A stretch of DNA of 64,000 nucleotides from NCBI GenBank assembly GCA_017592775.1, contig JAGFNJ010000005.1, forward strand, positions 62,246 to 126,245, in the 5' to 3' direction. The notes below the pieces were generated by a model. That model made no database searches. It had not been told where the DNA came from and worked only from the letters and a program-made list of their open reading frames with translations. A program made the position numbers and the translations under genes. Shown here piece after piece: positions 19,238 through 53,319 of the stretch. The stretch comes from Candidatus Accumulibacter conexus. GTDB lineage: Bacteria; Pseudomonadota; Gammaproteobacteria; Burkholderiales; Rhodocyclaceae. The stretch's first letter is position 1. Each line of letters starts with the position of its first letter.

Positions 19238-19960
19238 CTAAGCCAGCCTCGCCTCCAGCTTGCGCAGCGATGCGCGAACGGTGGCAGCCCTCGCGTCCCC
19301 AACCTCGTCGAGTTTGTCGCAGATCGCCCGCAGAACCTCGAGCGTCGCGTTCGGCGCACTGCTGCCAGCCTTGTCGACGAAGGCGCGGTAGGCTCGCTCG
19401 GCGCCCGGTACGTCCACTCCAAGCAATGCGCGGCAGTCGCCGAGGTCGGCCCACGCCCAGCCGCTGTCGCTGAGTTCCTGCTGTTCCGCCAAGTGCTTGG
19501 TGAGCAGCTTTTCCAGCGTTTCGATGTCCGTGGCAAGGTCGTCGAGGGAGCTCGCGCCCGAGAGCAGGGCCAACTTCACGGCGTTGACCCGATTGTACGT
19601 GCTCTGGTGAACGAAGCTCTCCTCCAACTCCGCGCCCTTGCGGTAGCTGTCGAGAGCGGCACGCGAATCGCCAAGGCGACGCAACATTCCCCCGCGACTG
19701 CCGTAGGCTTCGACGAGTTCGCGCGCGATCGCGGCCACCTCCGGGGTCGGATCCCCGGCGGGCACACGCTGCTCGCGGGGCCACTCGGGAAGGGCAAGCA
19801 GGAACCTGATGATCTCGTCCAATACACCCGCGCCGGCACGGAATTCGGCCACCGCTCTGCTCGCGTCGCCTGCCCTGCCAAACGCCTCGCCGCGCTTGCG
19901 CAGGAGCTTCGCCTGGCGATGCCTCTCGGCCACCTCATCCTGCCAGCGGCTCGCCGTCAT
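19238..19960 (-). CDS. all-helical TPR/DUF4071-like protein, last gene of the caspase operon
   Basis: 240-aa ORF. Its ATG overlaps the stop codon of the upstream caspase gene (ATGA overlap at 19957-19960). It shares motif order with the helical region of the 22916-24928 protein: SYRKGAEL..STYNRVNAVKLALL...GWAWADLGDCRALL versus PYHRAFVA..HYSGINALTLLLL...DYWARASHAEACLLL. Confidence 0.6.
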   Translation of the reverse strand: MTASRWQDEVAERHRQAKLLRKRGEAFGRAGDASRAVAEFRAGAGVLDEIIRFLLALPEWPREQRVPAGDPTPEVAAIARELVEAYGSRGGMLRRLGDSRAALDSYRKGAELEESFVHQSTYNRVNAVKLALLSGASSLDDLATDIETLEKLLTKHLAEQQELSDSGWAWADLGDCRALLGVDVPGAERAYRAFVDKAGSSAPNATLEVLRAICDKLDEVGDARAATVRASLRKLEARLA

Positions 19961-22245
19961 GGTGCGTCTCCTTTCAGCCTCTTGAGGATCGTCTCTGCCA
20001 GGGCGAAGTCTTCCGCCACATCGCTGTCGTACAGCGCTGCCGCAACGTCCTCGCCGAGCTTCTGGTGAAGCGCTTTCGCCGCCTCGGGAAACCCGCGCGG
20101 TTTGACCCGGTACTCAAGATAGAGCCAGGCCGCGATGCGCTGCTCCACCGCCGCGCGTTCAGCATCGCGTTTGATCGGCCTGCTGGCAGCGAACAACGTC
20201 TGCGTTGCCTCGACCCGATCCTTCTCGGTGCTGCTCAACGACTCGGCGGAGCGATCCAGCAGATCGTGCACCTCAGGATAGGCGACGCTGACCGGCTCGA
20301 TCGCTTCGCGGACGACCTGATGCACCCAGTTGTAGCTCGGATCGAGTTCGTCGAACGGCCTTCTCTTCACCAGTGCGTCGGCCAAGTCGTCGAAGGTTCT
20401 TGCGGCGCCCTTCTGGTATCGGCGGGGCTCGAGTTGGGCGTTCATCAGCGCCACCTGCTGGAGCTCGGGTCCCGACTGGCCGTCTGCTCTCCGGACGCGA
20501 GCCGCCAAGTCCGCCCCGGGCAGGTAGCGTTCATCGACGATCTGCAGCGCGCCCCAAGGGCTCACCGCGAGCCGGACTCCGAGTTCGAGGAACGAGGACG
20601 GACTGAAGAGGCTCCAGTCCATGACGCATCCGGCTACCCGGCGGATGTGCTCGTACAGTGCCTGCGAAACGAGCTGCGATGACCCCAGGTCGATCAGGCG
20701 ACGGACACGGGGCTGGCGCACCCCCCGCTGCTGGAGAGCCTTTTCCAGCCCGCGGCGCACGTATAGCCATGCTTCCCGATGTTCAGGACGAAAGGAGCAC
20801 AGTGCGAGCACCAGTCGATCCAACGGAATCGTGCCCCACGACTCGACATCGGAGCCGAGCTGGCGCAGCGAATCGTACGCTGGCAGGTCGAGGTAGCGCG
20901 GCTGCAGCAGGAGCTGATCAAAACCCCTCGCCGTACCCTCGATGAAGCGACGGACAACGGGGTCCTCGGCCACAGTCGTCTCGGTCTCACTGTGCGAGAA
21001 GACCTGCAGATCGCTCAGGTTGAACGGCGTCTCCAACTGGCGGCCTTCGCGCCAGCCGTAGCCGTGGCTGCACAGGGTCACTCCGCGCCGGGTCGCCGCG
21101 CGGATGCCGAGCAGGAACATCACGCCCGGCTCGAAGCGCGTCAGATCGAAAAAGGCCAGGTCGGCCTGGACGACGGCCCGGATCGTGTTCTTGAGTGAGG
21201 ATCGGTTCCTGAAGGCGTCGTGAACGCGAAAGACCACGGTCGTGACGCATCCGGCATCGAAGTCCTCCGGCAAGTCCCGACGGGTTCCAGCCACCGACGA
21301 CCGACCCAGCCAAGAGCGGCGGAAGCGCTGCCAGACGCTATCGCCGGCCTGCAGGAACACGTCATTCACCTTCTCACGCAATGGATCGTCGGATGAGAAG
21401 CCCGCATGCTCGGACTCGACGACGAGGCAGTGCAGCCGCCGCGGATCGAAGTTCTCCCAGAGCGCGCCGTCGGACGATCCGGCGGCCATCGCGGTCCGCC
21501 GGAAGATCGGCTGACGACTGAGCTGTTCCAGAGTGTCCGTGTTGATATCGCCCATGCTGCCAATCGAAGGTCTTTGCGGCGGGAGCCGGGGAAGGGCCGC
21601 TGCCGCGATCTCTTCGCATTGGCCGCCCGTCGCGTTCAGTACCTCCTGGAGCGTTTCGTTGCGGGAGTCCGGGGCGAGGGCTCGCGCCAGTGCAGCCGTA
21701 AAAACGCTGACATCCTTGCCATCACTGCCGCATCGCCAGACGTGGCAAAGCTCTTTCTCTGCGCAGCCGAAGATGCGGATGAAGTTCTTGTCCGGAAATG
21801 CCTGACTGCCCTTTGTCCACGGTCGCCCCCCTTTCTCCGTCCCGTGGTCGCAATCGTCGCGGCACGCATCGATGATGAAGATCACCAGCGCGTCCGGATC
21901 CACGACCGAGGGACTCAGGTCGGTCGAAACGCGGTGCGTGGCGCTGCGAGCTGCCTCAGCACGGCTGACGCCGGCGGGGAGGATCCATTCCTGGCCATCA
22001 ATCGAGACGCCGTGGCCGCTGAAGTAGACAATGCCGACGTCGCTGGTCACCTTCGCGCAGAAATCGCTGATCGCACTTTCGAGCAGGCTGGCATTCCTCA
22101 CCGTGTCGGCCGACACGACTTCGACCGCGAACCCACATGTCGTCAGCGTCCGCTTCATGAGCAGGACATCCTGCTCAGCGGCGGGGAGATTCGTGAAGCC
22201 GTCCCCGTACTCGGCAGCACCGATCAGCAGTGCGCGTCTCGCCAC
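19957..22245 (-). CDS. caspase (peptidase C14)-like domain protein with a central TIR/deoxyribosyltransferase-like module
   Basis: 762-aa ORF. The N-terminus ALLIGAAEYG...VYFSGHGV (His, about aa 78) ...FIIDACRDD (Cys, about aa 128) is a caspase His/Cys dyad pattern. The central ADLAFFDLTRFEPGVMFLLGIRAATRRGVTL resembles the N-terminal module of the 22916-24928 protein. GTG start lies 1 nt after the stop of the upstream small ORF. Confidence 0.8.
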   Translation of the reverse strand: MARRALLIGAAEYGDGFTNLPAAEQDVLLMKRTLTTCGFAVEVVSADTVRNASLLESAISDFCAKVTSDVGIVYFSGHGVSIDGQEWILPAGVSRAEAARSATHRVSTDLSPSVVDPDALVIFIIDACRDDCDHGTEKGGRPWTKGSQAFPDKNFIRIFGCAEKELCHVWRCGSDGKDVSVFTAALARALAPDSRNETLQEVLNATGGQCEEIAAAALPRLPPQRPSIGSMGDINTDTLEQLSRQPIFRRTAMAAGSSDGALWENFDPRRLHCLVVESEHAGFSSDDPLREKVNDVFLQAGDSVWQRFRRSWLGRSSVAGTRRDLPEDFDAGCVTTVVFRVHDAFRNRSSLKNTIRAVVQADLAFFDLTRFEPGVMFLLGIRAATRRGVTLCSHGYGWREGRQLETPFNLSDLQVFSHSETETTVAEDPVVRRFIEGTARGFDQLLLQPRYLDLPAYDSLRQLGSDVESWGTIPLDRLVLALCSFRPEHREAWLYVRRGLEKALQQRGVRQPRVRRLIDLGSSQLVSQALYEHIRRVAGCVMDWSLFSPSSFLELGVRLAVSPWGALQIVDERYLPGADLAARVRRADGQSGPELQQVALMNAQLEPRRYQKGAARTFDDLADALVKRRPFDELDPSYNWVHQVVREAIEPVSVAYPEVHDLLDRSAESLSSTEKDRVEATQTLFAASRPIKRDAERAAVEQRIAAWLYLEYRVKPRGFPEAAKALHQKLGEDVAAALYDSDVAEDFALAETILKRLKGDAP

Positions 22246-22246
22246 A

Positions 22247-22531
22247 CTACGGCTTCTTGAACTTCAGCGTGATCGAACCCGAGCCGCTGACTGTGGCTGT
22301 CCCGATGAACTGCACACCGCCTTCGGCGGTGATCTCGACACCGACCTCGACCTCCGAAAGCTCGTAGTTGCCGACCTGCCGAACGTCGCTGAAGACCTCG
22401 GCGAGCAACGCCGTCGCCGACTGCAGGTTTGCGCGCATCGTCGCAACCGGAATCGCGGCAACGCCGACCGCCCTGCCGCCCTTCGCCGGGATCTGCACCA
22501 GAATCGGAAGCGTTTCCTGGTCCGTGCTCAT
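22247..22531 (-). CDS. small beta-rich protein resembling peptidase-co-occurring (trypco2/Pepco-type) partners
   Basis: 94-aa product from ATG 22531, preceded by GGAGGAG. The C-terminal YELSEVEVGVEITAEGGVQFIGTATVSGSGSITLKFKKP matches my memory of the small proteins encoded next to trypsin/caspase peptidases in conflict systems. The longer ORF-track frame to 22855 is treated as spurious. Confidence 0.55.
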   Translation of the reverse strand: MSTDQETLPILVQIPAKGGRAVGVAAIPVATMRANLQSATALLAEVFSDVRQVGNYELSEVEVGVEITAEGGVQFIGTATVSGSGSITLKFKKP

Positions 22532-22915: not shown

Positions 22916-24928
22916 TCACCACAGCCGGCGCGTATCGATCCAGCTCACCCGCCCGGTGCGCCGCTTGACTTCGTTGTACATGTGGCTGGTACCGCCGGGA
23001 CCGTCGCCGCCGCCGCCGTTCCACAGGCAGATGAAGCGGACCTTGTCGACACCCCAGGCGAGCGCGGTATGGAGCAGCCAGAGATTGCAGCGCTCGAAGG
23101 CGCTGATCGTCCTGCCGCGGCCTCCCGCAGGCAGCGGCCCGATTTCCTCGGGCATGATCCGCGGCTCGTCGGCCAGAGTCGCGGTGACGGCGAAGTAGCG
23201 CTCGCGCCACTGCTCGCCATTGCTTGCCGGCAGGATGGAGCGCTCGATGAACTCCGGTTCGGCGAACGGCAGCATCACTTGCAGGCGAACGCCACGCGCC
23301 TGGCAGGCCTCGAGGAACAGCAGATCACCACCGCTGGCCGCCTGCGACAAGGCCAGATCACCGGCTCCGACGCCGAGCTGGTCGAGAACCCGGGCAACCT
23401 GTTCCGCTGCCAGCCCTTCCCGGTCAGCAGGAAAGCGCGGCGGCAGGCGATCGGCGGCATCAATCCTGTGGCCGCTGAACAGCAGCACCTGCCGCGGTGC
23501 AAAGGGTGGCGTGCTGCGCGCGATCTCGCGCTCGACGATGCTCAGGGCAGCGGCCGTCTCCGCCGGGCGAAAATCGATGTCGCGCAACAGGCACAAGGTC
23601 TGCCGGCTCGATTCGAGGGCGAACCAGTCCCGGTTGGCCGCGGCGACCATGTGGCTGAACTCCCGGCGCACCGATTCGACCGGCGCCAGCAGCAGGCACG
23701 CCTCGGCATGGCTGGCACGCGCCCAGTAGTCCTTGCGATCGCGCTCCTGCGCCGTCAGGCTGGCCCAGCGCACGCCGCCGCCGAGGTTCTCGATCAGCCG
23801 GGGATCGCTGTCGCCACCCAGATGCTGCCGCAGCAGCAACAGCGTCAGGGCATTGATGCCGGAGTAATGGTGCGCAGGGTCGGCGACGAAGGCCCGATGA
23901 TAGGGCTCGATCGCCTCGCCCAGGGTAGCGTTCTCGAAACTGGCTGCCTCGCGCATCTGCAGCGGCGACAGCCCGGGCTGGCGCCAGAGCGCCACCCAGC
24001 GCTCCTTCTCGATGCGCCCGGCAAGCGCCCAGCATTCGGCGTCGCGGGGATGATCGGCGGTCAGCCGGTGCACCAGCTCGCGCGCTTCCTCGAAACGGCC
24101 GAGGCGGCCCAGGCAGACCGACTTCCTCTCCCGGCTCGGCTTGTCGTCGGCGTCGATCGTCAACGCCTGTTCGAACTGCTCGAGCGCCAGTTCGTACTGC
24201 TTGAGCTTCAGCAGCGCCTGTCCGGCGGTGCGCCTGGCCTCGAGCTGCAGCGCGCGCACCGGCGTCTCCCCGGCGAGGACGAGGATGTCGCCCGGCCGGT
24301 TCTTCTGCCGCGACACCTCCATCCGGTTCGCCCAGCTTTCATAGGCGTCGGAGAACTCGTTGCGTTCGGCGAGCAGGAGCCGGCGCCACTCCGGTTGCTC
24401 GAGCTGCGGCATCAGTTGGAAGACGGGGCTCACCTTGCGCCGCGTCGAACTGGCCATGCTGGCGCAGACCATCGCCGTCAGCGCTGCGCGATCCTGCTCG
24501 ACGGTCGCCGGGTCCGGCGCGCCGTCGCGCAGCGAGTAGCGCAGCTTGCGGTCGGTGTAGATGTCGAAGGGCTGGTTCGGCCGCGGCCCCTGCACCAGCA
24601 CCACCCCGCGTGCGCGCAGGGCATGCCGTACGCCGAGTTCGTACCAGACGTTCGGGTTGTCGAGGGTCAGATCGGCAACGACGAGATCGGCGATCAGCAA
24701 CTCCTGGAACATGTCGGTGCGGATGTCGCCGGCACGCTGCTCCTCGTCGGCGCGAAACACCTCCATCCCCGCCGCCTCGAGCGCCGGCCGGATGTACTCG
24801 GCATAGACGCGATTGAAGTCGATCAACTGGCCATCGGCTCCGGGCTTGCTGCCGAAGGGCATGGCGACGAAGGCGTGTGGCGGCATCGGCCTCTCCTCAG
24901 CGCGGCGCTGCGTTGGCAGCGGCAGCAA
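22916..24928 (-). CDS. TIR/deoxyribosyltransferase-like + DUF4071 (TRAF-binding-like TPR) + C-terminal SLOG/DprA-like Rossmann domain protein
   Basis: N-terminus FVAMPFGSKPG...ADLVVADLTLDNPNVWYELGVRHALRARGVVLV. The central helical repeats contain HYSGINALTLLLL. The C-terminus reads VLLFSGHRID...SQAASGGDLLFLEACQARGV...ICLWNGGGGDGPGGTSHM. The likely true start is ATG 24886 (MPPHAFVAMPFG, preceded by GAGGAGAGG). The ORF track opens at TTG 24928. Confidence 0.65.
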   Translation of the reverse strand: MLPLPTQRRAEERPMPPHAFVAMPFGSKPGADGQLIDFNRVYAEYIRPALEAAGMEVFRADEEQRAGDIRTDMFQELLIADLVVADLTLDNPNVWYELGVRHALRARGVVLVQGPRPNQPFDIYTDRKLRYSLRDGAPDPATVEQDRAALTAMVCASMASSTRRKVSPVFQLMPQLEQPEWRRLLLAERNEFSDAYESWANRMEVSRQKNRPGDILVLAGETPVRALQLEARRTAGQALLKLKQYELALEQFEQALTIDADDKPSRERKSVCLGRLGRFEEARELVHRLTADHPRDAECWALAGRIEKERWVALWRQPGLSPLQMREAASFENATLGEAIEPYHRAFVADPAHHYSGINALTLLLLRQHLGGDSDPRLIENLGGGVRWASLTAQERDRKDYWARASHAEACLLLAPVESVRREFSHMVAAANRDWFALESSRQTLCLLRDIDFRPAETAAALSIVEREIARSTPPFAPRQVLLFSGHRIDAADRLPPRFPADREGLAAEQVARVLDQLGVGAGDLALSQAASGGDLLFLEACQARGVRLQVMLPFAEPEFIERSILPASNGEQWRERYFAVTATLADEPRIMPEEIGPLPAGGRGRTISAFERCNLWLLHTALAWGVDKVRFICLWNGGGGDGPGGTSHMYNEVKRRTGRVSWIDTRRLW

Positions 24929-24942
24929 CCGGCACAGCGCGG

Positions 24943-27900
24943 CTACTCATCGGTTGCCGACCGGGCACGGCGCGGCCGGCCGGAGCGGCGCGGAGCATCG
25001 CCGCCCGCCAGCGGGCGGTCGACGCGCTCGCCCGCACCCGGCCAGACCTGTTCGATGAGCGCGACCAGACGGTCGGCCGCGAGCTGCCACCCCGTCTCGC
25101 CACTGGTGACCCGGCGGGCATCGCAGAAGCGTGACAGCATGCCAATCTGGCTGACGATCGAGTCGAGATCGCGCGGCCGCAAAGCGAGGCTCGCCAGCGT
25201 CTCGGCGTAGGCACGGGCGACTTCCTCGTACGCCCGCTCGCCGGCCTCGCCAGCCTGCAGCAGTTGCTGGTCGAGCAGGCGCTCGATCAGCAACGCGTCG
25301 GCGGCGATGAGCGCATCCCAGACGCCGGCGCCGCTCGCGCTGCCACCGCCGACGCCCTGCCGGCAGTGGCCGGCGAGCGCAATCGCCGCGGCGCGCTGCC
25401 CATCGTCGGGCAGCAGTGCCTCCAGGGCAAGGCGATTGAGCGCATTGTAGGCGCGGAACGAGCTGTCACCCGGCCTGCCCTCACCGGCGGCGTAGAAACG
25501 TGCGCTGTCAAGCAGCGCGCGGTCCACTGCCGCCGCCGCGTCGCCGTCCACCGCCCGCTGCTGCGCCGCACCGCCGTTCCAGGCGGCGAGCAGGCGCGTC
25601 GCATGCAGGCTGGCGAGGCGCTTGGCGGCACCACCGCGCAAGGCGCTGCGCTCGCCACCCGCCGTCGCTGGCGCCGCTCCGTCCGGCTGCCGGCCTGCCG
25701 CGGCGACGACCTGGTCGAGATCGGCGAGGCGTGCGAGAGCCCGCTCGATCAGGCCCGGATCGGCGCTGGCCTCACCGAGGCGAGCCTCGATGTTCGCCAG
25801 TTGCTCGATGGCGCCGATCGGCACTTGGCCGGCGTCATCGTCGTCCTGCAGCGCATCGAGATAGCAGTCACGCGCATCGGCAAACTGACCGAGATCGGCC
25901 CACAGCGCGCCGACGGCGAACTGTACCGCCGGCAGGCGCCGCCAGCCGGCGGGGCAGCGTTCCTTGAGCAGGCGACGGAGGTTCCTGACGCTGGCCTCGA
26001 TCTCGCGTCGTGTCTGCTGACGGCTCGCTCGCGCCAGCCCCGCCCGCCAGCTCACCAGTTCATCGAGCAGTTCGTCGACCGACGCGTAGCCCGAATCGTC
26101 GTTGCCGCGGCCCTCGAGGCGCGGCTCGGCCCGCCAGCCGGGATCGCCGTAGGCCTGGAAGGCACCCCAGGTGATGTCCTGCGCGTTGCTCCTCCAGACC
26201 GCCTTGCGCGCCGCGTACACCGCCTCGCCAAAGGGCAGTCGCTCGACCAGCAGATGGCGGTAGAAGGCATTGCCGAAAACCAGCGCCCCCTGATCGTCGA
26301 CCGCCCAGCCGGCAACGACGACGCAGCGTACACCGCAGTCGATCAGCTCGCGTGCGACGCTGGCGGCAAGCAGGTTGCCGTCACGCACCGTCGCCGCAGT
26401 GTCGGCAGCGGCGACGCTGTCGATCTTGCCGAGATGACAGCAACTGAGGAAGACCAGCTCGGGAACCGTCTCCATCGCCCTGATCTCGGCCGCCGTCAGC
26501 AGCAGCCCGTCGGAGAGGACGACGCCGCTGCGCCGCCGGCCATCGGCGTGCAACTGGTCGAAGACACCATGCGCCGAGATGTACAGCAGCCGATAGTTCT
26601 CCTGATACAGCCGCGTCAGCACGTCGCAAGCACGCCAATCGGCACCGATCGCCGACAGCACCTGATAGCCCATCGCCTGCAGTACGGCAGCCACCTCGTT
26701 CGCCTCGCTCTCGGCGCCGGGCAAGGGTGGCGGATTGGCGGCATCCGGCCGCCGCGGGTCGGGAAAGGCGCGGGTGAAGCCTTCGACCGAGGGATTGCCG
26801 ACGACGAAAGCCCGGCGCTCGAATCCCTGCCGTACCTGCCGCCGGAACTCGCTGGTGGCAAACTGCCGGACCACCGGCGTCCGCAGCGCCAGCGGCAGCT
26901 TCTCGCCACCGCCGCCCGGCGAGTCGGCGAACATCAGCTCCCACGGCAAGTTCGCCGTGTACTCGTCGACCACCAGGACGATCCGCTCGAGCTGCCGGGC
27001 AGCGTCCTTGAAATCGTTCGGCACCATCAGCTGGAAGAGCGCACGGCCGAAACTCTCCTGCCAGACCGTGCTGTGGATCTGCTGCCGGACCAGCATCTCG
27101 ACCAGTCCCGGCTGGCGCTGATGAACGATCGACTCGGCGCGCGCCCGCTGGCCGACATAGAGGAAACGCAGGCGATCGGTGACCGCCGTGCGCGCCGTCC
27201 GCGGCGCCCGCCCGGCGGCGTCGGCGGGCGCCGCGCCGACGGCAGCCGGCGCCGTCGCAGCCACCTCCGCCGGCTCCTGCCGAGCGGCGTCGGTGATCAT
27301 CAGACGCGGCCAGTAGGCAGACCCGCTGCGGTCGAACAGGCGCCGCCGCCAGCCTTCGCCCTGCTGCAATTGTGGCTGGCAGACCAGCGCGACGCCATGG
27401 CGGCCGAGCAGTCCGGCGAGGCGCTCGGGTACCCGGCGCAAGGCATACGCGGCGGTGATCGCCGTGTCCTGGTACAGCTCGACGATGTCGACCCGACTGA
27501 CCCGGATGTGACGCCGGGTTGCCTCGTGAAAGCGTGCGTTGGCCTCGATGACCCCACGCACCAGCGCTTCGACCGAAGCCGCAACCGAAACACTGGCCGA
27601 CGAGTTGTAGCCGAGGAGCAGCGTCGCCAGTGGCAGGTCGCGATCCTCGTCGCCGAGCACGTCGATCGCCTGCAGCAGGTAGCGCAGCACACCCGCCCGC
27701 ACCGCGGCCGTCAGATCCTCGACGTTCAGGCTGCCGTCGTAGCTCCCCAAACCACAGACGACGGCTCCGCGCAGCGACCCGCGCCGCCGCTCCTGTGCGT
27801 TCGGCAATCGCAGCACGACCGTCGCGCTGCCCCGCGGCCCGGCATAGAGGCCCAGGTTGTAGCGTTCGCCGAGATCGCCGTCGAGCAGTTCGCGGTCGAT

Positions 27901-30900
27901 CAGCGCCTCGGCGCCGGAAATCGGATCCTGCTCGTAGTGACCGAGCAGGATCGGCTGCTCGAGGAAACGCAGGTCCATCGCCCGCACGGCCACTTCCAGC
28001 CGGCGCTTCGAGCGCGGTGCGACGCGGTTGCGCGGCGCGCCTCCGAGCAGGCCGACGGCCACTGCTTCGCCGCTCGCCAGCATCGGCGGTCCTGCGTCAT
28101 AGACGACCGGCCGCGCCTCGCCATCGCCGCGCACTGCCGGCGGACTGCGCAGCAGGGCACCGGTGGCGCCGCTGTGCAGCAGTTCGGCGAGCGCCGGATG
28201 GTACTCGCGGGTCGACGGCAGATCGCCGTGCTGCGCCGGCATGTAGTAGTAACTGCCGATGTTCCCGATCCGCCCCGAGGCCCACGTCACCGTGCCGTCA
28301 CCCTGCGTCGTGCCGACCAGCTTCAGCCGCCCCTTCTCCTCGCGGATGCCGCACGGCGTGTTGCGCGCAACGCCGAAGACATAGACCGACTGCTGCTCGT
28401 ATTCCTTCGGCAGGGCGGGCGTCGGCTCGCCATCCTGCCGCCAGAGCCAGCTGCCCTCGTCGAGTTCCGCCTGGCTCGGCGTCGCCGACTGGCCGTCGCC
28501 AAACCAGAAATCCTTCACCTTCTGCCGGTAGTCCTGCCAGGTCTCGGCGCGCTCGAAGCTCTGCCCGCCCAGGCCACCGTCCGGCTGCCCCTGAAAGCAG
28601 TCGACGAAACCCGGCTTTGGCAGCAACTGCAGGGCGCCACGGAAACCGGAGACGATCTGCAGCACTTCGCGCATGTCGTGCCGGACATCGAGTCGCACCA
28701 GCGAGCGCAGCGTGTCACCCTTGCCGAGCAGGTTCTCGACCATCGAGTAGGCGCCCTGGTTCGGCGTGCCGAGCATCACCAGACGGGCGCCCGGCCGCGC
28801 CATCAGCGCATCCATCACCGGCCGCCGCCGATGGATGCAGGCACGCACGACGAGACCGCCCATGCTGTGCGCCAGCAGCCGGATCGGCTGTTGCGTCTCC
28901 AGCAGCAGCCGATCGAGCAGCGCAGCCAGGCGTTCGCCCAGCACGTCGAGCGGCTGCCGCCAGTCGTAGGCAAAGCTCTCGACACGGTGGCTGGCGGCGA
29001 GAAACCTGCAGAGATCGCCATAGAACATGCCGAACAGTTCCTCCGCCTCGACTTCCGGCTGTCCCCAGGCGATCTTGTCGAGGCCGCCACCGGCAATGTC
29101 GAGGGGATCGAACCAGACCCGGTCGCGGCGCCTGACCTGCAGGTGCGACCCCATGACGCCGGGCAGGACGACGACCACCGGCAGATCGGCGACCGCCGCT
29201 TCGCCACCACGCCGCAGCCGGGCGCCGGGCATGGCTGCGTCGGCGAAAGGCCCCGGCAACGGCTGGAAAGCCGCCAGCGAGCCGACATCGCCGCTCACCA
29301 GCCAGTCCCGCAGGGCTGCCCGCGTGTCGATGTTGCTGAAATAGGCGAAGTGCGATACCGCGGCGCCACGGTCGAACAGGGCCCGCGCCCGCGCCTGTGG
29401 CGCGATGCCGGCGTACATAGAATCGGTATCGACGACCAGATCGTTGTCGAGGTTGTCGAACAGCAGGAAGTCGGTCAGCAACACCCCCAGGCGCTGCAGC
29501 ACGCCGCCGCCCTCGATGTCACCGGCGATCACCGCCATCTCGATGCCCGAACGTACCGGCGCCTCGCGCAGCAGGCGCGCCATCGGTGACTCGGGCAGCA
29601 TCGCCTCGATGCCCGGCACCAGGTGGGCACTCGTCCGTCGCCGGGCGATCTCGAGCACGACACGCTTGAAGGCCGAATAGAGCGGATTGCCGAAGAAGAA
29701 CGGAATCTGTCCGAGCAGCGTCAACAGCCCGGAGAGAAAGACATCGAGGTTGCCGCTGGCCAGCCGCGTTCCCTGCGCCGGGCTGGCAACCCGCACGTAG
29801 CGCCGCACGACCAGCTTCTTCGCCGCCAGCTCGCTGGCCAGCGCCCGCAAGAGCTGCCGCTGTTCGCCATGCGCGTCGCCGATCTCGCGCTGCACGACCT
29901 GTGCGGCGGCGGCGTCGGTCTCGCCGGTGGCCGGCAGGTCGCTGCGATAGTGCTCGATCAGGTGGTCGAAATTCTCGAGGCAGATGAGATCACCGACCAG
30001 GCCGCCACGCGAGTGCGAAACCAGACTGAGCTGCAGACCGTCCGGCAGCGCCGCCAGCAACTGCCGCGCGTTCTCGATCGGGCTCTCGGACAGCGTCCGG
30101 TGCTCGAAGGCGTAGATGCGACCGTTGAACTGCCGCTCGAGAACGCTCCACAACTCGCGCTCGTCGAGTTGCAGATCGCCGAAGCTGCCGCGCGTGCTCG
30201 ACCCCGTGCCGTGGATGAAGACGAGGACCGGCTCACCCGCGACAGCAGCCTCCTGCAGCTCCCGCTGCGCCCGCGCCCGCGCCTGCTCGTCCGGTTCTGC
30301 GGCCGGCGCAGCGCCGCGCACCGGCTGCCAGCAGTAGACTCCCGGCTGCCGCTCCAGCCGCTGCTCGATGGCCCACATCAGGGCCTTGGTTCCGAGCCAG
30401 GAAACGCCCAGTTCGACGGCATCGGAACCCCTGCCCCGTGTCAGCTCGGCAAGCCGCTTCCTGGCGTCGGTGATGATCGCGTCTTCACTGGCGCCGACCG
30501 CCAGCGCGAAAACGCGGCTGATCAGGCCGCCGACGAGATCGCCGGCGAGCCCGCGCGTCGCCGCGCCGTCGCTGCGCAGGCGATCGAACAGGATCTCGCC
30601 CTCGCTGCCGAGGAGGTCGGGACGGCTGCGTGCCAGCGACGCCTGCAGCTCGCTGGCGCTGGTGATCAGCACCCCGCCGTCAGCCAGTTCGATGACCAGC
30701 ACCTCGTCCGCCTGCGCCACGTACTTCTGGCTGACGGCGGTGGCGCCGCGCGCCGTCGCGCCGATCTCGAAGCAGGCTCGCGGCTGCAGGTAGCCCGCCG
30801 GCATGAACGGATCATCGCCGGCATCGGCGGCGCGCCGGACGTTGCGCAGCAGTGCCGGCAAGGGTGCCTGATCCTGCGGGCTGGCCGTCAGGTCGAGAAT

Positions 30901-30915
30901 CGTGGTCTGCGACAT
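24943..30915 (-). CDS. giant multidomain protein: two alpha/beta-hydrolase (lipase/LCAT/PGAP1-like) domains + CHAT caspase-fold protease + C-terminal helical repeats
   Basis: About 1990 aa from ATG 30915, preceded by GGAG. Hydrolase 1: VLVFIHGTGSS...LVSHSRGGLV (about aa 250-325 of the ORF-track frame). Hydrolase 2: VVVLPGVMGSHL...RLLAHSMGGLVVRA (about aa 598-710). CHAT: LLYISAHGVF...ELVFLSCCHLGK (about aa 1461-1515). The tail is Ala/Leu-rich and helical. Confidence 0.8.
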   Translation of the reverse strand: MSQTTILDLTASPQDQAPLPALLRNVRRAADAGDDPFMPAGYLQPRACFEIGATARGATAVSQKYVAQADEVLVIELADGGVLITSASELQASLARSRPDLLGSEGEILFDRLRSDGAATRGLAGDLVGGLISRVFALAVGASEDAIITDARKRLAELTRGRGSDAVELGVSWLGTKALMWAIEQRLERQPGVYCWQPVRGAAPAAEPDEQARARAQRELQEAAVAGEPVLVFIHGTGSSTRGSFGDLQLDERELWSVLERQFNGRIYAFEHRTLSESPIENARQLLAALPDGLQLSLVSHSRGGLVGDLICLENFDHLIEHYRSDLPATGETDAAAAQVVQREIGDAHGEQRQLLRALASELAAKKLVVRRYVRVASPAQGTRLASGNLDVFLSGLLTLLGQIPFFFGNPLYSAFKRVVLEIARRRTSAHLVPGIEAMLPESPMARLLREAPVRSGIEMAVIAGDIEGGGVLQRLGVLLTDFLLFDNLDNDLVVDTDSMYAGIAPQARARALFDRGAAVSHFAYFSNIDTRAALRDWLVSGDVGSLAAFQPLPGPFADAAMPGARLRRGGEAAVADLPVVVVLPGVMGSHLQVRRRDRVWFDPLDIAGGGLDKIAWGQPEVEAEELFGMFYGDLCRFLAASHRVESFAYDWRQPLDVLGERLAALLDRLLLETQQPIRLLAHSMGGLVVRACIHRRRPVMDALMARPGARLVMLGTPNQGAYSMVENLLGKGDTLRSLVRLDVRHDMREVLQIVSGFRGALQLLPKPGFVDCFQGQPDGGLGGQSFERAETWQDYRQKVKDFWFGDGQSATPSQAELDEGSWLWRQDGEPTPALPKEYEQQSVYVFGVARNTPCGIREEKGRLKLVGTTQGDGTVTWASGRIGNIGSYYYMPAQHGDLPSTREYHPALAELLHSGATGALLRSPPAVRGDGEARPVVYDAGPPMLASGEAVAVGLLGGAPRNRVAPRSKRRLEVAVRAMDLRFLEQPILLGHYEQDPISGAEALIDRELLDGDLGERYNLGLYAGPRGSATVVLRLPNAQERRRGSLRGAVVCGLGSYDGSLNVEDLTAAVRAGVLRYLLQAIDVLGDEDRDLPLATLLLGYNSSASVSVAASVEALVRGVIEANARFHEATRRHIRVSRVDIVELYQDTAITAAYALRRVPERLAGLLGRHGVALVCQPQLQQGEGWRRRLFDRSGSAYWPRLMITDAARQEPAEVAATAPAAVGAAPADAAGRAPRTARTAVTDRLRFLYVGQRARAESIVHQRQPGLVEMLVRQQIHSTVWQESFGRALFQLMVPNDFKDAARQLERIVLVVDEYTANLPWELMFADSPGGGGEKLPLALRTPVVRQFATSEFRRQVRQGFERRAFVVGNPSVEGFTRAFPDPRRPDAANPPPLPGAESEANEVAAVLQAMGYQVLSAIGADWRACDVLTRLYQENYRLLYISAHGVFDQLHADGRRRSGVVLSDGLLLTAAEIRAMETVPELVFLSCCHLGKIDSVAAADTAATVRDGNLLAASVARELIDCGVRCVVVAGWAVDDQGALVFGNAFYRHLLVERLPFGEAVYAARKAVWRSNAQDITWGAFQAYGDPGWRAEPRLEGRGNDDSGYASVDELLDELVSWRAGLARASRQQTRREIEASVRNLRRLLKERCPAGWRRLPAVQFAVGALWADLGQFADARDCYLDALQDDDDAGQVPIGAIEQLANIEARLGEASADPGLIERALARLADLDQVVAAAGRQPDGAAPATAGGERSALRGGAAKRLASLHATRLLAAWNGGAAQQRAVDGDAAAAVDRALLDSARFYAAGEGRPGDSSFRAYNALNRLALEALLPDDGQRAAAIALAGHCRQGVGGGSASGAGVWDALIAADALLIERLLDQQLLQAGEAGERAYEEVARAYAETLASLALRPRDLDSIVSQIGMLSRFCDARRVTSGETGWQLAADRLVALIEQVWPGAGERVDRPLAGGDAPRRSGRPRRARSATDE

Positions 30916-31066: not shown

Positions 31067-31909
31067 TCAGGTGAGAACCTTCCGCTGACGCGCGTCCGCG
31101 CTGCCGAAGATCTGCGGCGTCTGCGGATACGAGGCAGACGGCAGGTTGGCCGGCGTGATGCGGGCATGCCAGTCAGCATAAGTGGCACCGGCAGGCAGCG
31201 CACGCAGGGTCTTCAACGCGTAGTAGGTGAAAGCACCGCAGGGACGGCCGCCAATCCTGGCGTCGTAGCTGAAGTTGTTCGGCCCTTCCTTGCAGCCGGC
31301 GAGCAGCAGGTCACCGGCCATCCGCGACAGCGCACCGGCAAAAGGCGACAGACCCGAAGTGACCTGGACCGTCGTCAGCGGCTGCCCGCTGAAACCGCGC
31401 GGCAACTGGTCGGCAGGCAGCCAGTTGCCCATCGGCATGAAGCGCGGTCGCGGCGCGTCATCGGCATCCGGATCGGCCAGCGCCGCCCGCGTCACCGTCC
31501 CCGAATGGCAGCTGTCAGAAATCAGCAGCAGCCGCACGCCCGCCTTGCGGGCCGCAAACAGGGTATTGATCTCGTCATCGATCAGGGCGCCGCCACCGGT
31601 CTGCAGGTCGTACGGACACAGCGCCTCGTCGAGTCCGTCAACTTCGTCGCCGTTGAGGTCGGGGACATAGGTTCCGTGTCCCGAGAAGGTCATCACGACG
31701 ACGTCGCCACTGACTGCCGAACCGATCAGCGACTGGATGCCACTGACCATCGCTGCCTTGGTGGCCTGGCTGTCGATCAGCTTGCTGACGGTGAAACCGC
31801 GCGTCGCCAGTTCGCCGGCCCAGTCGTTGGCGTCGTTGACGCAGCCATTCAGGTCCATGTGCGTGCCGGGATAGTTGTTGACACCGATGCAAAGCGCGCG
31901 CTTGCTCAT
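31067..31909 (-). CDS. metacaspase-like peptidase C14 family protein
   Basis: 280-aa ORF. ALCIGVNNYPG...LNGCVNDA...VVMTFSGHGT (His) ...LLLISDSCHSGT (Cys). ATG at 31909 is preceded by AGGAGG. Confidence 0.85.
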   Translation of the reverse strand: MSKRALCIGVNNYPGTHMDLNGCVNDANDWAGELATRGFTVSKLIDSQATKAAMVSGIQSLIGSAVSGDVVVMTFSGHGTYVPDLNGDEVDGLDEALCPYDLQTGGGALIDDEINTLFAARKAGVRLLLISDSCHSGTVTRAALADPDADDAPRPRFMPMGNWLPADQLPRGFSGQPLTTVQVTSGLSPFAGALSRMAGDLLLAGCKEGPNNFSYDARIGGRPCGAFTYYALKTLRALPAGATYADWHARITPANLPSASYPQTPQIFGSADARQRKVLT

Positions 31910-32052
31910 GACTGCCTCCTGTGGTCTGATGATTTATCGGGGATTGCGATCTCCAGTGTAGCAAGCGCCCGGCGAATGACAACCCCCACGGCGGCCAAGC
32001 CATGCGCTCACGGCTGCGAAGTCGTCGCGCACGGGGCGGAAAGTCAACAGGC

Positions 32053-32084
32053 AAAAAAAAAAAGCGAGCCCGCCACGAGCTCGC
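32053..32084 (-). terminator. rho-independent terminator downstream of the OmpA-like gene
   Basis: On the minus strand, stem GCGAGC / GCTCGC with a 9-nt loop is followed by a run of 11 T (plus-strand A-run 32053-32063). It lies 24 nt after the stop at 32108. Confidence 0.65.
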
Positions 32085-32107
32085 CGGCACGCCATCAACT
32101 TTGGCGA

Positions 32108-49465: not shown

Positions 49466-50641
<1,176 letters not shown>

Positions 50642-50655
50642 CCGGGAGACCAAAC

Positions 50656-53319
50656 ATGAACCTCCTCGACCAATCGGCCCGTGTTGCGCTGGCGGCCTTC
50701 CTCCACGACATTGGCAAGCTCGCCGAGCGCGCCGGCATCGAGCACGACGGCCGCCTCGACGCCCACCGGACGCTGTACTGCCCGTGGCACCAGGAGGGAA
50801 GCAACCCCCGCCATGGCTACCACAGCCATATCCATGCTGCCTACACCGCGCTCGCCTGGGACGAACTGGAAGCGACTGGACATTTTCCGGATCTGCGCCA
50901 CGACGCTCCACCGTTCGCGACTGCCGCCGACGACAACGCTACCGACTCGGCCGTGAATGCGGCCAGTGCGCACCACCGGCCGGACACCTTCCTGCAATGG
51001 ATCGTCGCCACGGCCGACCGCGTCGCCTCGGGCTTCGAACGTGACGAGTTCGACAGCCGGTACAACAACAGCAAGGAGCGCGAGAACCACTACCGCGCGC
51101 GTCTGCTGACGCTGTTCGAACAGATCGGTCGCGGCCCGATCAAGGAAGGCGAACTCCAGTGGCGCTACGCCCTGCAGCCCCTGGCACCGGCGAGCATCTT
51201 TCCGCAGCCGGTCAGCCTGTGCACGCCGCGCAATGACCCCGGCGCGCGCAGCGAGTACCTCGCTCTGTGGCAGACCCTGCTCACCGGCATCCGGCTCATC
51301 CCTCGGGCGCACGTTGGCTCGCTGCCGTTGTGGCTCGACCACTTCGACAGTCTGTGGCTGACGATGACGCACGCCATCCCTTCTGCGACGGCCTTCGGAG
51401 CCAAGCCCGAGGTATCGCTGTACGACCACAGCAAGGCGACGGCCGCGCTGGCGACGGCCCTGTGGCGCTGGCACCACGAGCAGCGGCTGACCACGGTCGA
51501 TGCCGTGCGCGGCGGCTGGTCCGACGACAAGTTCCTGCTGATCCAGGGTGACGTGTTCGGCATTCAGGACTTCATCTTCGCCGAAGGCGGCGCCACCCAG
51601 ACGAACGCCCACAAGCTGCTGCGGGGCCGCTCGTTCCAGGTCTCGCTGTTCGCCGAGTGCGCGGCACTCATGCTGCTCGACGCGCTCGAGCTACCGGCGA
51701 CGGCGCAGATCATCAACGCGGCAGGCAAGTTTCTCATCGTCGCGCCGAACACCGCCGACGCGCACGGCGCCCTCGAGCGCTGCCGCCGCGCACTCAACGA
51801 CTGGTGTCTGAGGCACACCTACGGCGAAGTCGGCGTCGGGCTGGCGAGTACGCCGGCTTCGTGCAACGACTTCGCCGCCGGCCGCTTCGGCAAGCTGACA
51901 CGGCGCCTGTTCGCGGCGCTCGACACCGCCAAGCACCAACGCTTCGATCTTTGCGCCGACGAGGCCACCACCGCTTTTGACGGTTTTCTCGACCAGTTCG
52001 ACACTGCCCTTGGTGTCTGCACGATCAACGGCCGCCATCCCGCTGATCGCGCGGCATCCGCCCGGCGCGGCTACCCGCTGTCGAAGCTCGCCGACGACCA
52101 GATCCGGATCGGCGAGCAACTGACCCGGCACGCCCGCCTGCTGGTCGCACGCGAGGCCGGAACGCTACCGGTGCTCGGCCTCGACTACTTCGGCTACCGG
52201 CTCGCGATCGTCCCCGGCGACGAGGAGTCCGGCAGGTACGGCGAACTCGCTCGCTGCGGCAACCTGCTGCGCGCCTGGGATTTCGACGCCCCCGAGGCGG
52301 ACGGCACGATCTGGCGTGGTTATGCGCGACGCTTCGTCAACAGCTATGTGCCCCGCTTCGACGCCAGTGACTTGCCGACGCTGGACAAGTATGGCGCGTG
52401 GCAAAGCGAAGCCGAAGTGCTGGTGGCGGACCACCGCGAACAGAAAGCGTCAGGGGCGATCAAGACGCTCAACCTGATCGCCTGTGAAGATCGCCAGCAG
52501 GGCAGCCAGGGGCGCTGGCAAGGAGAGATTGCCCTGATGGTTCTCAAGGGCGACATCGACAACCTCGGCAGCCTGTTTCAACAGGGCCTGGAGAAACCGA
52601 CTTTTGCCAAGATGGCTTCACTGTCGCGCCAGGTCAACGGCTTCTTTGCCCTCTGGCTACCGTGGTTCTGTGAACACGGGCTCGACGAGCGGCAGGTCGC
52701 TCGCTACCGCAACACCTACACCGTCTTCGCCGGTGGCGACGATTTCTTCCTGATCGGTCCCTGGGAGTCGACACTCGCGCTGGCCACGACGTTGCGGGAG
52801 AAGTTCGCGGCCTATGTCGCCAATCCGGACCTCAGCTTCTCTGCCGGCCTGAGCATGGCGCACTCGAAGACGCCGGTACGCCAGCTCGCGCGCAGCGCCG
52901 AAGGGGCGCTCGCAGCCGCCAAGGAACACCCTGGCAAGGATGCCGTCACCCTCTGGCAGCGCACCGTCGGCTGGACCGACTGGCGCAGCCTCATGGGCCA
53001 GCGCCGACACGCGCTCGAGGCGCTGATGGAACGTGCCGGCAGCCACGGCGCGGCTTTCTCCAGTGGCCTGACCTACGCCCTGCTGCTCCTCTCGGATCGC
53101 GCCGGGAGCAAGCGTCCGGAAGATGCCATCTGGCGCTCGCAACTGCACTATCGGCTGGCACGCTTCTTCCGTGACCGCGTCAAGGGAGACGAGGCAGCCC
53201 GCACGCGTCGCGAAGAACTGCTCGTCGAAGCCATACGAGAAGTCGGCGGCGCGCTGAGCACCCACCGGGGCGCCTACCGCCTGCCACTGTCCGTCCTGCT
53301 CTACCGGCAGCGTCAGTAG
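50656..53319 (+). CDS. cas10: type III CRISPR-associated Cas10/Csm1
   Basis: 887 aa. N-terminal HD motif AAFLHDIGK (50704-50709). Palm/cyclase motif FAGGDDFFLIGPW (GGDD at 52732-52743). ATG at 50656 is preceded by GGGAGA. Confidence 0.9.
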   Translation: MNLLDQSARVALAAFLHDIGKLAERAGIEHDGRLDAHRTLYCPWHQEGSNPRHGYHSHIHAAYTALAWDELEATGHFPDLRHDAPPFATAADDNATDSAVNAASAHHRPDTFLQWIVATADRVASGFERDEFDSRYNNSKERENHYRARLLTLFEQIGRGPIKEGELQWRYALQPLAPASIFPQPVSLCTPRNDPGARSEYLALWQTLLTGIRLIPRAHVGSLPLWLDHFDSLWLTMTHAIPSATAFGAKPEVSLYDHSKATAALATALWRWHHEQRLTTVDAVRGGWSDDKFLLIQGDVFGIQDFIFAEGGATQTNAHKLLRGRSFQVSLFAECAALMLLDALELPATAQIINAAGKFLIVAPNTADAHGALERCRRALNDWCLRHTYGEVGVGLASTPASCNDFAAGRFGKLTRRLFAALDTAKHQRFDLCADEATTAFDGFLDQFDTALGVCTINGRHPADRAASARRGYPLSKLADDQIRIGEQLTRHARLLVAREAGTLPVLGLDYFGYRLAIVPGDEESGRYGELARCGNLLRAWDFDAPEADGTIWRGYARRFVNSYVPRFDASDLPTLDKYGAWQSEAEVLVADHREQKASGAIKTLNLIACEDRQQGSQGRWQGEIALMVLKGDIDNLGSLFQQGLEKPTFAKMASLSRQVNGFFALWLPWFCEHGLDERQVARYRNTYTVFAGGDDFFLIGPWESTLALATTLREKFAAYVANPDLSFSAGLSMAHSKTPVRQLARSAEGALAAAKEHPGKDAVTLWQRTVGWTDWRSLMGQRRHALEALMERAGSHGAAFSSGLTYALLLLSDRAGSKRPEDAIWRSQLHYRLARFFRDRVKGDEAARTRREELLVEAIREVGGALSTHRGAYRLPLSVLLYRQRQ

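Follow-up and report, generated by a model that had tools for sequence, protein, structure and literature searches.

A giant protein combining two lipase-like domains, a CHAT protease and TPR-S-like repeats, and its small caspase partner, in Candidatus Accumulibacter conexus

Known caspase-activated systems and the Accumulibacter locus

In bacterial conflict systems, caspase genes are obligatorily paired with an α/β-hydrolase gene (PMC7159879, Kaur et al. 2020). In the LcCaspase–LcHydrolase pair of Lysobacter capsici, the caspase activates the α/β-hydrolase, a zymogen, by two cuts between Arg and Gly, and cell death follows (PMC12642450, Evans et al. 2025 preprint). A CHAT protease can also cleave and activate a second caspase (10.1101/2023.06.23.546230, Steens et al.). 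The present work concerns a giant gene in a 64,000-nucleotide (nt) stretch of Candidatus Accumulibacter conexus (GenBank assembly GCA_017592775.1, contig JAGFNJ010000005.1, positions 62,246 to 126,245), referred to below as the window. Its 1990-amino-acid (aa) product carries two lipase-like α/β-hydrolase domains, a CHAT protease domain and C-terminal repeats resembling TPR-S, and it is accompanied by the gene for a small metacaspase-like protease of the Peptidase_C14 (C14) family. The parts and the logic of this system are already known; the fused two-lipase/CHAT/TPR-S protein with its metacaspase partner is an uncharacterised variant. A literature search returned no paper mentioning DUF7379, the family of the first hydrolase, and none describing this architecture.

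Like the described caspase/hydrolase modules, the locus has a caspase-superfamily protease genetically locked to an α/β-hydrolase with lipase-like relatives; CHAT is fused in every giant, and a C14 gene is adjacent in about 87% of loci. In both, the protease side is fused to repeat-type sensors (presumed ones in the giant), a conserved Arg followed by Gly occurs in flexible segments near the hydrolase, and protease-licensed cell death is the expected outcome. The differences lie in the arrangement. LcHydrolase is a separate zymogen of about 300 aa, whereas here two hydrolases of different families are fused to the protease–sensor protein. The fused protease is CHAT, with a second, separate C14 protease in addition, and the candidate cuts lie on either side of the hydrolase domains and not inside one.

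A sensor-fused CHAT encoded with a second, smaller caspase-like protease is also the arrangement of SAVED-CHAT/PCaspase in type III-B CRISPR–CBASS hybrids. There, however, the sensor is SAVED and not a C-terminal TPR-S, and SAVED-CHAT lacks the middle domain and the lipase domains of the giant. Neither Pfam nor PADLOC finds a SAVED domain in the giant protein; the PADLOC SAVED_CHAT match in one plasmid homologue is non-significant (E 0.007) and covers the CHAT core alone. The operon described here has no cyclic-oligonucleotide synthase.

Csx29, the TPR-CHAT protein of Craspase (type III-E CRISPR-Cas), likewise has TPR repeats and CHAT in one chain. It is the sole multidomain solved structure retrieved by Foldseek (7x8a_D and 8d9f_A, about 615–656 aligned columns), with weak matches (E 4e-3 to 2e-2, template modelling score about 0.2–0.3). 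Its TPR is N-terminal to CHAT, and it works bound to gRAMP/Cas7-11; in the giant the repeats are C-terminal, the neighbouring genes are not cas genes, and no Cas7-11 is adjacent. Hydrolase 2 shares with LCAT/LPLA2 and bacterial family I lipases the fold, the nucleophile elbow, a GDGTV-type acid motif and the final His. It differs from LCAT/LPLA2 in its cap region, at about 14–16% identity, and in being an internal domain of a 1990-aa cytosolic protein. Borvo (BovA) is a single-gene defence system whose product is, like the giant, one large CHAT-containing protein; the partial BovA match (E 4.6e-5) is all that PADLOC reports for the giant, and it is confined to part of CHAT (aa 1404–1578), leaving the rest unmatched.

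The giant protein and its partner caspase

The minus-strand open reading frame (ORF) of the giant gene ends with a stop codon at 24943–24945 and is open to 30969; translation probably starts at the ATG at 30915, which has AAGGAG 7 nt upstream. Its guanine-plus-cytosine (GC) content at third codon positions (GC3) is 0.85, typical for real genes in the window. A protein search with the giant gave 1245 matches, and the best 120 of these were examined for length and coverage. Nearly all are 1950–2090 aa long, with 97–100% query coverage and 57–94% identity; more than 100 are full-length orthologues, under the mere database name 'CHAT domain-containing protein'. Because orthologues of this length cover 97–100% of the protein, the giant is one genuine gene and not several. 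The sequence-only reading, made earlier from the letters and ORFs alone, had described a single polypeptide of about 1990 aa, which is what the ORF encodes; its reservation that assembly errors might hide several genes is answered by the same orthologues, which also rule out an artefactually fused ORF. Two copies only, from long-read metagenome assemblies (L014 and L022), look frameshifted: there the giant gene lies in several frames, or is split into ORFs of 1243 and 538 aa. These breaks are probably frameshift errors or pseudogenes, not genuine split architectures.

The giant is 94% identical to a protein of Accumulibacter sp. SK-11 and 96% identical to a partial copy (residues 1–1215) in the UBA2327 'iunctus' metagenome-assembled genome (MAG). 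An alignment of the query with 116 full-length homologues (117 sequences) shows conservation along the entire length except in a few linkers. Distant copies, at 31–47% identity, have the identical domain order; they were found in a Cytophagaceae MAG, on Azotobacter, Paracoccus and Burkholderia plasmids, and in Thiotrichales and Sphaerotilus MAGs. The family ranges over Beta-, Gamma- and Alphaproteobacteria, Bacteroidota and Cyanobacteria, and a larger set of 214 members, non-redundant at 90%, was compiled from it. In a tblastn search of plasmids, all nine matches lay within very large genes (seven named CHAT domain-containing protein, one hypothetical, one unannotated), and each of three plasmid homologues checked by Pfam had DUF7379, an LCAT/PGAP1-like domain and CHAT. 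An NCBIfam scan of the giant protein gave no match.

Hydrolase 1 scores 116.3 bits against DUF7379 (cut-off 33); its profile finds the putative lipase 7x2p in the PDB (2.8e-3), a loose placement. In the model, the nucleophile elbow consists of strand 295–301, then Ser302, then helix 304–311. The triad comprises Ser302, His522 and either Asp466 or Asp492 as the acid, and a long conserved lid insert spans aa ~310–458. Hydrolase 2 is marginally above the LCAT (PF02450) cut-off, with 23.3 bits against 21, and weak PGAP1 and DUF676 matches are obtained as well. Its profile finds LCAT (3.6e-8) and LPLA2 (3.7e-7) in the PDB. The triad is Ser684, Asp873 (of GDGTV) and His896, and a cap insert spans aa ~720–842. 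Across the 117 sequences Ser302 is invariant, Ser684 is present in 116, and at least 98% retain Asp492, His522, Asp873 and His896.

An AlphaFold2 model of aa 1–960 (predicted local distance difference test, pLDDT, 85; predicted template modelling score, pTM, 0.86) contains two α/β-hydrolase cores with strand–Ser–helix elbows and large lid/cap inserts. The top Foldseek match of this model in the PDB is LPLA2 (4x95, E 2e-7); LCAT is also matched, and further matches are lipases of Bacillus, Geobacillus, Proteus and Pseudomonas and Legionella PlaB. The sequence-only reading had picked out the two elbows and, before each, an oxyanion-type HG or PG motif. All four motifs are in place, with both serines conserved, and the α/β-hydrolase fold on which that reading depended is what the model gives. 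A tandem duplication was considered for the two hydrolases and rejected; hhalign similarity between them is limited to the 12-residue nucleophile elbow.

The CHAT match has 106.8 bits (cut-off 24) and runs over model positions 3–289 of 289. His1449 and Cys1492/1493 are invariant in the 117-sequence alignment, and the dyad His1449/Cys1493 is kept in 100% of the 214 non-redundant members, so the His/Cys pair first suggested by two short motifs is correctly aligned. A model of aa 940–1990 (pLDDT 80, pTM 0.68) shows an α/β middle domain, CHAT and all-helical repeats, the last of which agree with the stretch of about 400 aa of Ala/Leu-rich helical repeats seen earlier. TPR-S (PF20308) is above threshold in one orthologue (L015; 41.9 bits, E 1.6e-10) and in seven of the ten scanned short forms of the family, which lack hydrolases (up to 46.7 bits).

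Two segments that had been left unassigned, aa 1–~205 and aa ~970–1205, have no sequence or profile match in Pfam or the PDB and are conserved, folded domains in the models. The profile of the N-terminal domain matches the giant's orthologues only, and the domain is absent or undetected in some family members. The middle domain is among the most conserved regions (about 0.5–0.8 identity per 30-residue block, mostly at least 0.7) and is always N-terminal to CHAT. In 1.84 billion proteins its profile found 1353 representative clusters, counted at 50% identity (1009 at E <= 1e-10); the members are all giants, fragments or middle–CHAT–TPR-S proteins. The idea that the middle domain is a degenerate second caspase lobe homologous to CHAT has no support at the sequence level (hhalign probability 0.1).

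With two lipase-like domains, CHAT and repeats in one polypeptide, a single-chain sensor/protease/effector is the best-supported reading of the giant. The sequence-only reading had proposed such an arrangement and called it unusual; the arrangement stands, and the rarity does not, since the family is large.

Table 1. Features of the giant gene, its partner caspase gene and their surroundings in the window (nt positions are those of the window; ~ denotes approximate values).
Feature	Residues (aa)	Position (nt)	Strand	Basis or remark
Giant gene	1990 plus stop codon	24943..30915	-	single ORF
N-terminal domain, mixed β/α	1-205	30301..30915	-	model confident except loop 121-129
Arg121-Gly122, candidate cleavage site	121-122	30550..30555	-	sole disordered loop of N-terminal domain
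Hydrolase domain 1, DUF7379 α/β-hydrolase	226-545	29281..30240	-	Pfam PF24096, E 2e-33
Motif IHGTGS, HG oxyanion-type	234-239 (HG 235-236)			precedes Ser302 elbow
Motif VSHSRGG		30001-30021	-	Ser302 (nt 30010-30012)
Arg569-Gly570, candidate cleavage site	569-570	29206..29211	-	disordered linker between hydrolases
Hydrolase domain 2, LCAT/LPLA2/PGAP1-like α/β-hydrolase	576-925	28141..29190	-	Pfam LCAT, E 5e-5
Motif LPGVMGS, PG oxyanion-type	584-590			precedes Ser684 elbow
Motif AHSMGG		28855-28872	-	Ser684 (nt 28864-28866)
Arg929-Gly930, candidate cleavage site	929-930	28126..28131	-	motif PPxxR-G/A after hydrolase 2
Polybasic RSKRR	968-972	28000..28014	-	end of disordered linker, before middle domain
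Middle domain, α/β fold	970-1205	27301..28008	-	conservation and model
CHAT caspase-like protease domain	1255-1597	26125..27153	-	Pfam PF12770, E 2e-30
Motif ISAHG		26566-26580	-	His1449
Motif FLSCCHLG		26428-26451	-	Cys1492/1493
C-terminal helical repeats, TPR-S-like, presumed sensor	1613-1960	25036..26079	-	all-helical in model
Small metacaspase/orthocaspase-like Peptidase_C14 gene	280	31067..31909	-	Pfam C14, E 2e-21
Promoter-like site upstream of small caspase gene		31955..31982	-	consensus scan only
Strong terminator-like hairpin with T10 tail		32063-32085		after preceding OmpA-like gene
TIR-like/TPR-S gene downstream of giant	656	22916..24886	-	Pfam TPR-S, 3e-21; PADLOC TIR effector, 1.7e-6
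Pepco gene	~94 from Met109	22247-22531	-	own promoter-like site
Caspase gene	762	19957-22245	-	downstream of Pepco gene
TPR-like gene of Pepco-caspase-TPR set	240	set 19238-22531	-	

The small caspase gene lies directly upstream of the giant gene on the same strand. Its catalytic dyad is intact (His78 in FSGHG, Cys134 in DSCHSG), it has a conserved linker at 140–200, and its nearest PDB relatives are Geobacter GSU0716 (3bij, 3e-28), followed by yeast, plant and trypanosome metacaspases. When metagenomes were scanned with the profile of the middle domain, 80 loci were obtained, of which 64 had a judgeable 5' side. A C14 gene stood directly upstream on the same strand, 11–470 nt away, in 56 of these 64, and directly upstream in 45 of the 52 non-redundant loci (~87%). 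Among 24 distinct fetched genome, plasmid and encoding-contig loci, which span Accumulibacter, Burkholderiales, Thiotrichales, Gammaproteobacteria and picocyanobacteria, a homologue of the small caspase adjoins the CHAT gene in 16. The plasmid copy of Azotobacter chroococcum HR1 has no annotated partner. The picocyanobacterial C14 proteins are 60–62% identical to that of the window, with an invariant dyad; between phyla, this degree of sequence identity is strikingly high. To judge from sequence and gene order, the small caspase and the giant gene are one conserved two-gene module of a protease-gated effector kind.

Two further candidates were examined and set aside. An in-frame fusion of the small caspase to the giant in Sphaerotilus (L011) proved to be separate adjacent genes in different frames. 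A common alternative partner where the small caspase is missing was sought among the large Pfam-less neighbours in L002, L020 and L021, which are mutually non-homologous.

Candidate cleavage sites and competing explanations

Because a C14 gene adjoins in about 87% of judgeable loci, any cleavage model must include a second protease. Metacaspases and orthocaspases cut after basic residues (PMC6426788), and for one bacterial caspase specificity for Arg has been demonstrated (10.1101/2024.10.24.620036). In the giant, near-invariant Arg residues fall in the segments where model confidence is lowest, even where the surrounding linker is unconserved; pLDDT is below 50 at aa 121–129, 557–571 and ~940–965. 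Each of the three residues Arg121, Arg569 and Arg929 occurs in about 94–97% of the aligned sequences from the set of 214 non-redundant members. Arg121 occurs in 196 and Gly122 in 189 of ~202. The inter-hydrolase linker varies in length and sequence, and an Arg stands 11–13 residues before strand 1 of hydrolase 2 in 189 of ~200. Arg929 is found in 198 of ~210, with a small residue in the next position (A 103, G 56, D 19, S 11), and this site is present even in homologues at 31–40% identity. Within the polybasic motif, Arg968 is conserved in 99% of close homologues; the hydrolase-free short forms start with a Met shortly ahead of the residue that corresponds to aa ~972.

A cut at Arg121-Gly122 would expose aa 122–140 (nt ~30496–30552; GLAGDLVGGLISRVFALAV) as a new N-terminus; this segment is Gly-rich and is among the most hydrophobic stretches of the giant (19-residue hydropathy 1.58).

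The scheme preferred here, tentatively and at slightly less than an even chance, is a sensor-gated cascade of two proteases that cuts at the conserved arginines and unleashes membrane-directed lipases. The TPR-S repeats would hold CHAT inactive until a trigger is bound, which may be a phage- or stress-derived protein or ligand. Active CHAT and the putatively Arg/Lys-specific small caspase would then make up a two-step cascade, in parallel to the activation of PCaspase by SAVED-CHAT. The giant would be cut in its disordered loops and linkers, at Arg121-Gly122, Arg569-Gly570, Arg929-Gly930 and the polybasic residues 968–972, and these cuts would free or un-inhibit both hydrolase domains. The freed hydrolases would attack membrane lipids, and the cell would be killed or arrested, by abortive infection or programmed death.

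This scheme is complicated by several observations that weigh against it. On the sensor side, the window protein scores 22 bits against TPR-S, below the cut-off of 27.6 (E 2.6e-4), and Foldseek gives weak TPR-protein and Csx29 TPR-CHAT matches for the C-terminal half (E 2e-3 to 2e-2). LcHydrolase is likened to the giant by its published description, not by sequence, and the attribution of the Arg sites to CHAT or to the small caspase is a guess. Most copies stand among housekeeping genes at conserved positions, between trx and rpsF in Accumulibacter and between gyrA and crtL in picocyanobacteria, and such a position is unusual for mobile defence genes. On the effector side, within the set made non-redundant at 90%, 15 of 206 aligned members have another residue (Gly in 13) in place of the hydrolase 1 nucleophile, and 28 of 203 (Gly in 26) in place of that of hydrolase 2. 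Every member with hydrolase 1 alone carries Gly in place of the nucleophile, and a few members are without both nucleophiles; the CHAT dyad is never lost. Given these losses, the hydrolases cannot be a universal killing agent.

The architectures of the family, obtained by scanning the retrieved proteins with custom domain profiles and Pfam, bear on the same point. Class 1 consists of middle–CHAT–TPR-S proteins of about 950–1025 aa, whose Met start is genuine and lies just ahead of the middle domain; class 2 proteins (about 1520–1550 aa) have the N-terminal domain and hydrolase 1 without hydrolase 2; class 3 comprises the giants with both hydrolases. In the picocyanobacterial slot formed by gyrA, C14, the CHAT protein and lycopene cyclase (crtL), the occupant is a hydrolase-free protein of 963–1009 aa in two loci (L023, L024) and a 1521-aa protein with a dead hydrolase 1 in a third (L026). 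The number of hydrolase domains attached to the core is zero, one or two, so that the hydrolases are additional cargo; on sequence grounds, the conserved unit is the small caspase plus middle–CHAT–TPR-S, with the hydrolases optional. Nucleophile loss overall affects 7–14% of members, and both triads are intact in about 86–93%. The Ser-to-Gly members retain the Asp, the His, the lid region and the CHAT dyad, and the window protein retains both serines. The optional hydrolases and the 7–14% loss weaken the case for hydrolases always acting as effectors; hydrolases may serve as effectors where intact and as regulators in other members.

Such modularity is one ground for the foremost alternative, in which the output is proteolysis of cellular proteins by the small C14 caspase and/or CHAT. 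The hydrolases would then be regulatory, as ligand receptors of the plant D14/KAI2/GID1 type, autoinhibitory plugs or decoy substrates. The C14 plus middle–CHAT–TPR-S core is conserved without any hydrolase, and the loss of the nucleophile is recurrent and specific, from Ser to Gly, with Asp, His and lid conserved and with no serine in any one-hydrolase member. Killing by promiscuous Arg-specific bacterial caspases is also known (10.1101/2024.10.24.620036, 10.1101/2023.06.23.546230). Nevertheless, both triads are intact and strongly conserved here, as in the large majority of members, two different lipase-like domains are retained in tandem, and the hydrolase is the death effector in known caspase/α/β-hydrolase pairs (PMC12642450). 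Both the proteolytic output and the regulatory role of the hydrolases are judged unlikely, if still serious contenders.

A further alternative concerns the purpose of the system and keeps the biochemistry of the two-protease cascade. The cassette could be endogenous and not anti-phage, a vertically inherited pathway of programmed cell death, stress response or membrane-lipid remodelling, switched on in aggregate-forming Accumulibacter or picocyanobacteria by nutrient, oxidative or envelope stress or another internal cue. In favour of this are the conserved sites that the cassette occupies amid housekeeping genes on the chromosomes of both groups, the Hsp20 and thioredoxin genes that are neighbours here and the lack of any PADLOC system match beyond the weak CHAT match. 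There is no obvious foreign-DNA signature in GC or GC3 either, because the GC of the giant gene is only slightly above that of the window (0.69–0.71 against ~0.62–0.70 across most of it; the window as a whole is at ~0.62–0.71 over most of its length) and GC3 is high. Conversely, TPR-S, Pepco and TIR-like genes in the neighbourhood are a signature of conflict systems (PMC7159879). Some copies lie on plasmids or beside recombination genes: an Azotobacter plasmid copy adjoins a type I restriction-modification system, Fic genes, a PD-(D/E)XK nuclease and insertion sequence (IS) elements, and a Cytophagaceae copy adjoins a resolvase and umuDC. Moreover, the flanks differ between genera, and therefore the cassette does move. 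An endogenous role is considered a little less probable than the purely proteolytic one.

A broader and speculative extension, to which a similarly low probability is given, is that of an ancient, largely vertical cell-death cascade common to picocyanobacteria and Proteobacteria, which has repeatedly captured α/β-hydrolase domains. The giant would then be a self-contained three-tier cascade: one polypeptide would hold the sensor, the initiator protease and two latent lipase executioners, which an executioner metacaspase would release at fixed arginines. The Gly forms would be non-catalytic regulators.

Cysteine protease domains self-process large secreted toxins. A secreted or contact-delivered polymorphic lipase toxin against competitors, with CHAT as the self-processing or maturation protease, would suit the size and multidomain make-up of the giant, with its internal cysteine protease and phospholipase-like domains, and the other very large Pfam-less proteins that adjoin some homologues, but it is highly improbable: the giant has no apparent signal peptide or transmembrane segment (maximum 19-residue hydropathy 1.67), the neighbourhood contains no PAAR, VgrG, Rhs, TPS or immunity gene, the metacaspase partner is cytosolic, and the large neighbours of different loci are mutually non-homologous.

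Genomic surroundings and significance

The promoter-like site in Table 1 suggests a transcription unit that begins ahead of the small caspase gene. The downstream gene for a 656-aa TIR-like/TPR-S protein may belong to the same transcription unit, and no terminator was found separating it from the giant gene. The protein has a TIR-like N-terminus, a TPR-S/MAP3K_TRAF_bd middle part and a conserved, unassigned C-terminal domain (GGDLLF, WNGGxGDGPGGT). The gene, or parts of it, is found next to giants in five loci (L004, L006, L016, L008, L025). In Burkholderiales (L016) and Piscinibacter (L008), its C-terminal domain is a separate small gene next to the giant, and in Sphaerotilus (L025) a TPR-S/MAP3K_TRAF_bd gene follows the giant. 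The TIR-like/TPR-S protein may be a third component of the system. A suspected likeness of its C-terminal domain to SLOG/LOG (GGD...GDGPGGT) found no support in the PDB or Pfam and is a lead only. The possibility that the TPR-S tail of the giant is paralogous to this downstream TPR-S protein was dismissed, as the two show no significant similarity.

Further downstream, the set of Pepco, caspase and TPR-like genes resembles the Pepco–protease pore modules described in PMC12642450. The giant cassette of Piscinibacter (L008) has a fused caspase/TPR relative as its neighbour.

The gene order in Accumulibacter UW20 is thioredoxin, C14, giant, rpsF-priB-rpsR-rplI-dnaB. Compared with UW20, the window has four extra genes downstream, and Hsp20, cytochrome c and OmpA genes upstream. 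The window also contains a type III-A CRISPR-Cas locus with Cas10/Csm1 and Cas6 (50419–53319 and 56972–58114, both on the plus strand; Cas10/Csm1 matches PDB 9zs2_A, E 2e-158). Its CRISPR array (58123–~62900; ~69 repeats, GTCAGTATGCAGCCCTGAAAACAAAGGGATTGAGAC, period ~70) accounts for the low-GC stretch at 58–62 kb. Housekeeping oxidoreductase genes separate the CRISPR locus from the caspase/CHAT operon, about 19 kb away. A link between the two was considered and is unlikely, given this distance behind housekeeping genes and the absence of the CRISPR locus from the other loci.

Protease-licensed effectors are emerging as a dominant principle in bacterial immunity and as the evolutionary background to the caspase pathways of eukaryotes. 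To these the giant and its relatives would contribute a single-chain version, in which sensor, CHAT protease and two lipase-type executioners are fused, with a second metacaspase as partner. The family is found in bacteria that dominate their environments, among them Accumulibacter, many Burkholderiales and picocyanobacteria. It would offer a compact model for the wiring of a bacterial two-caspase cascade, for the cellular effect of a caspase-activated lipase, and for the way in which effector cargo is swapped or inactivated on a constant sensor–protease core. The predicted cleavage sites and catalytic residues make the scheme directly testable.

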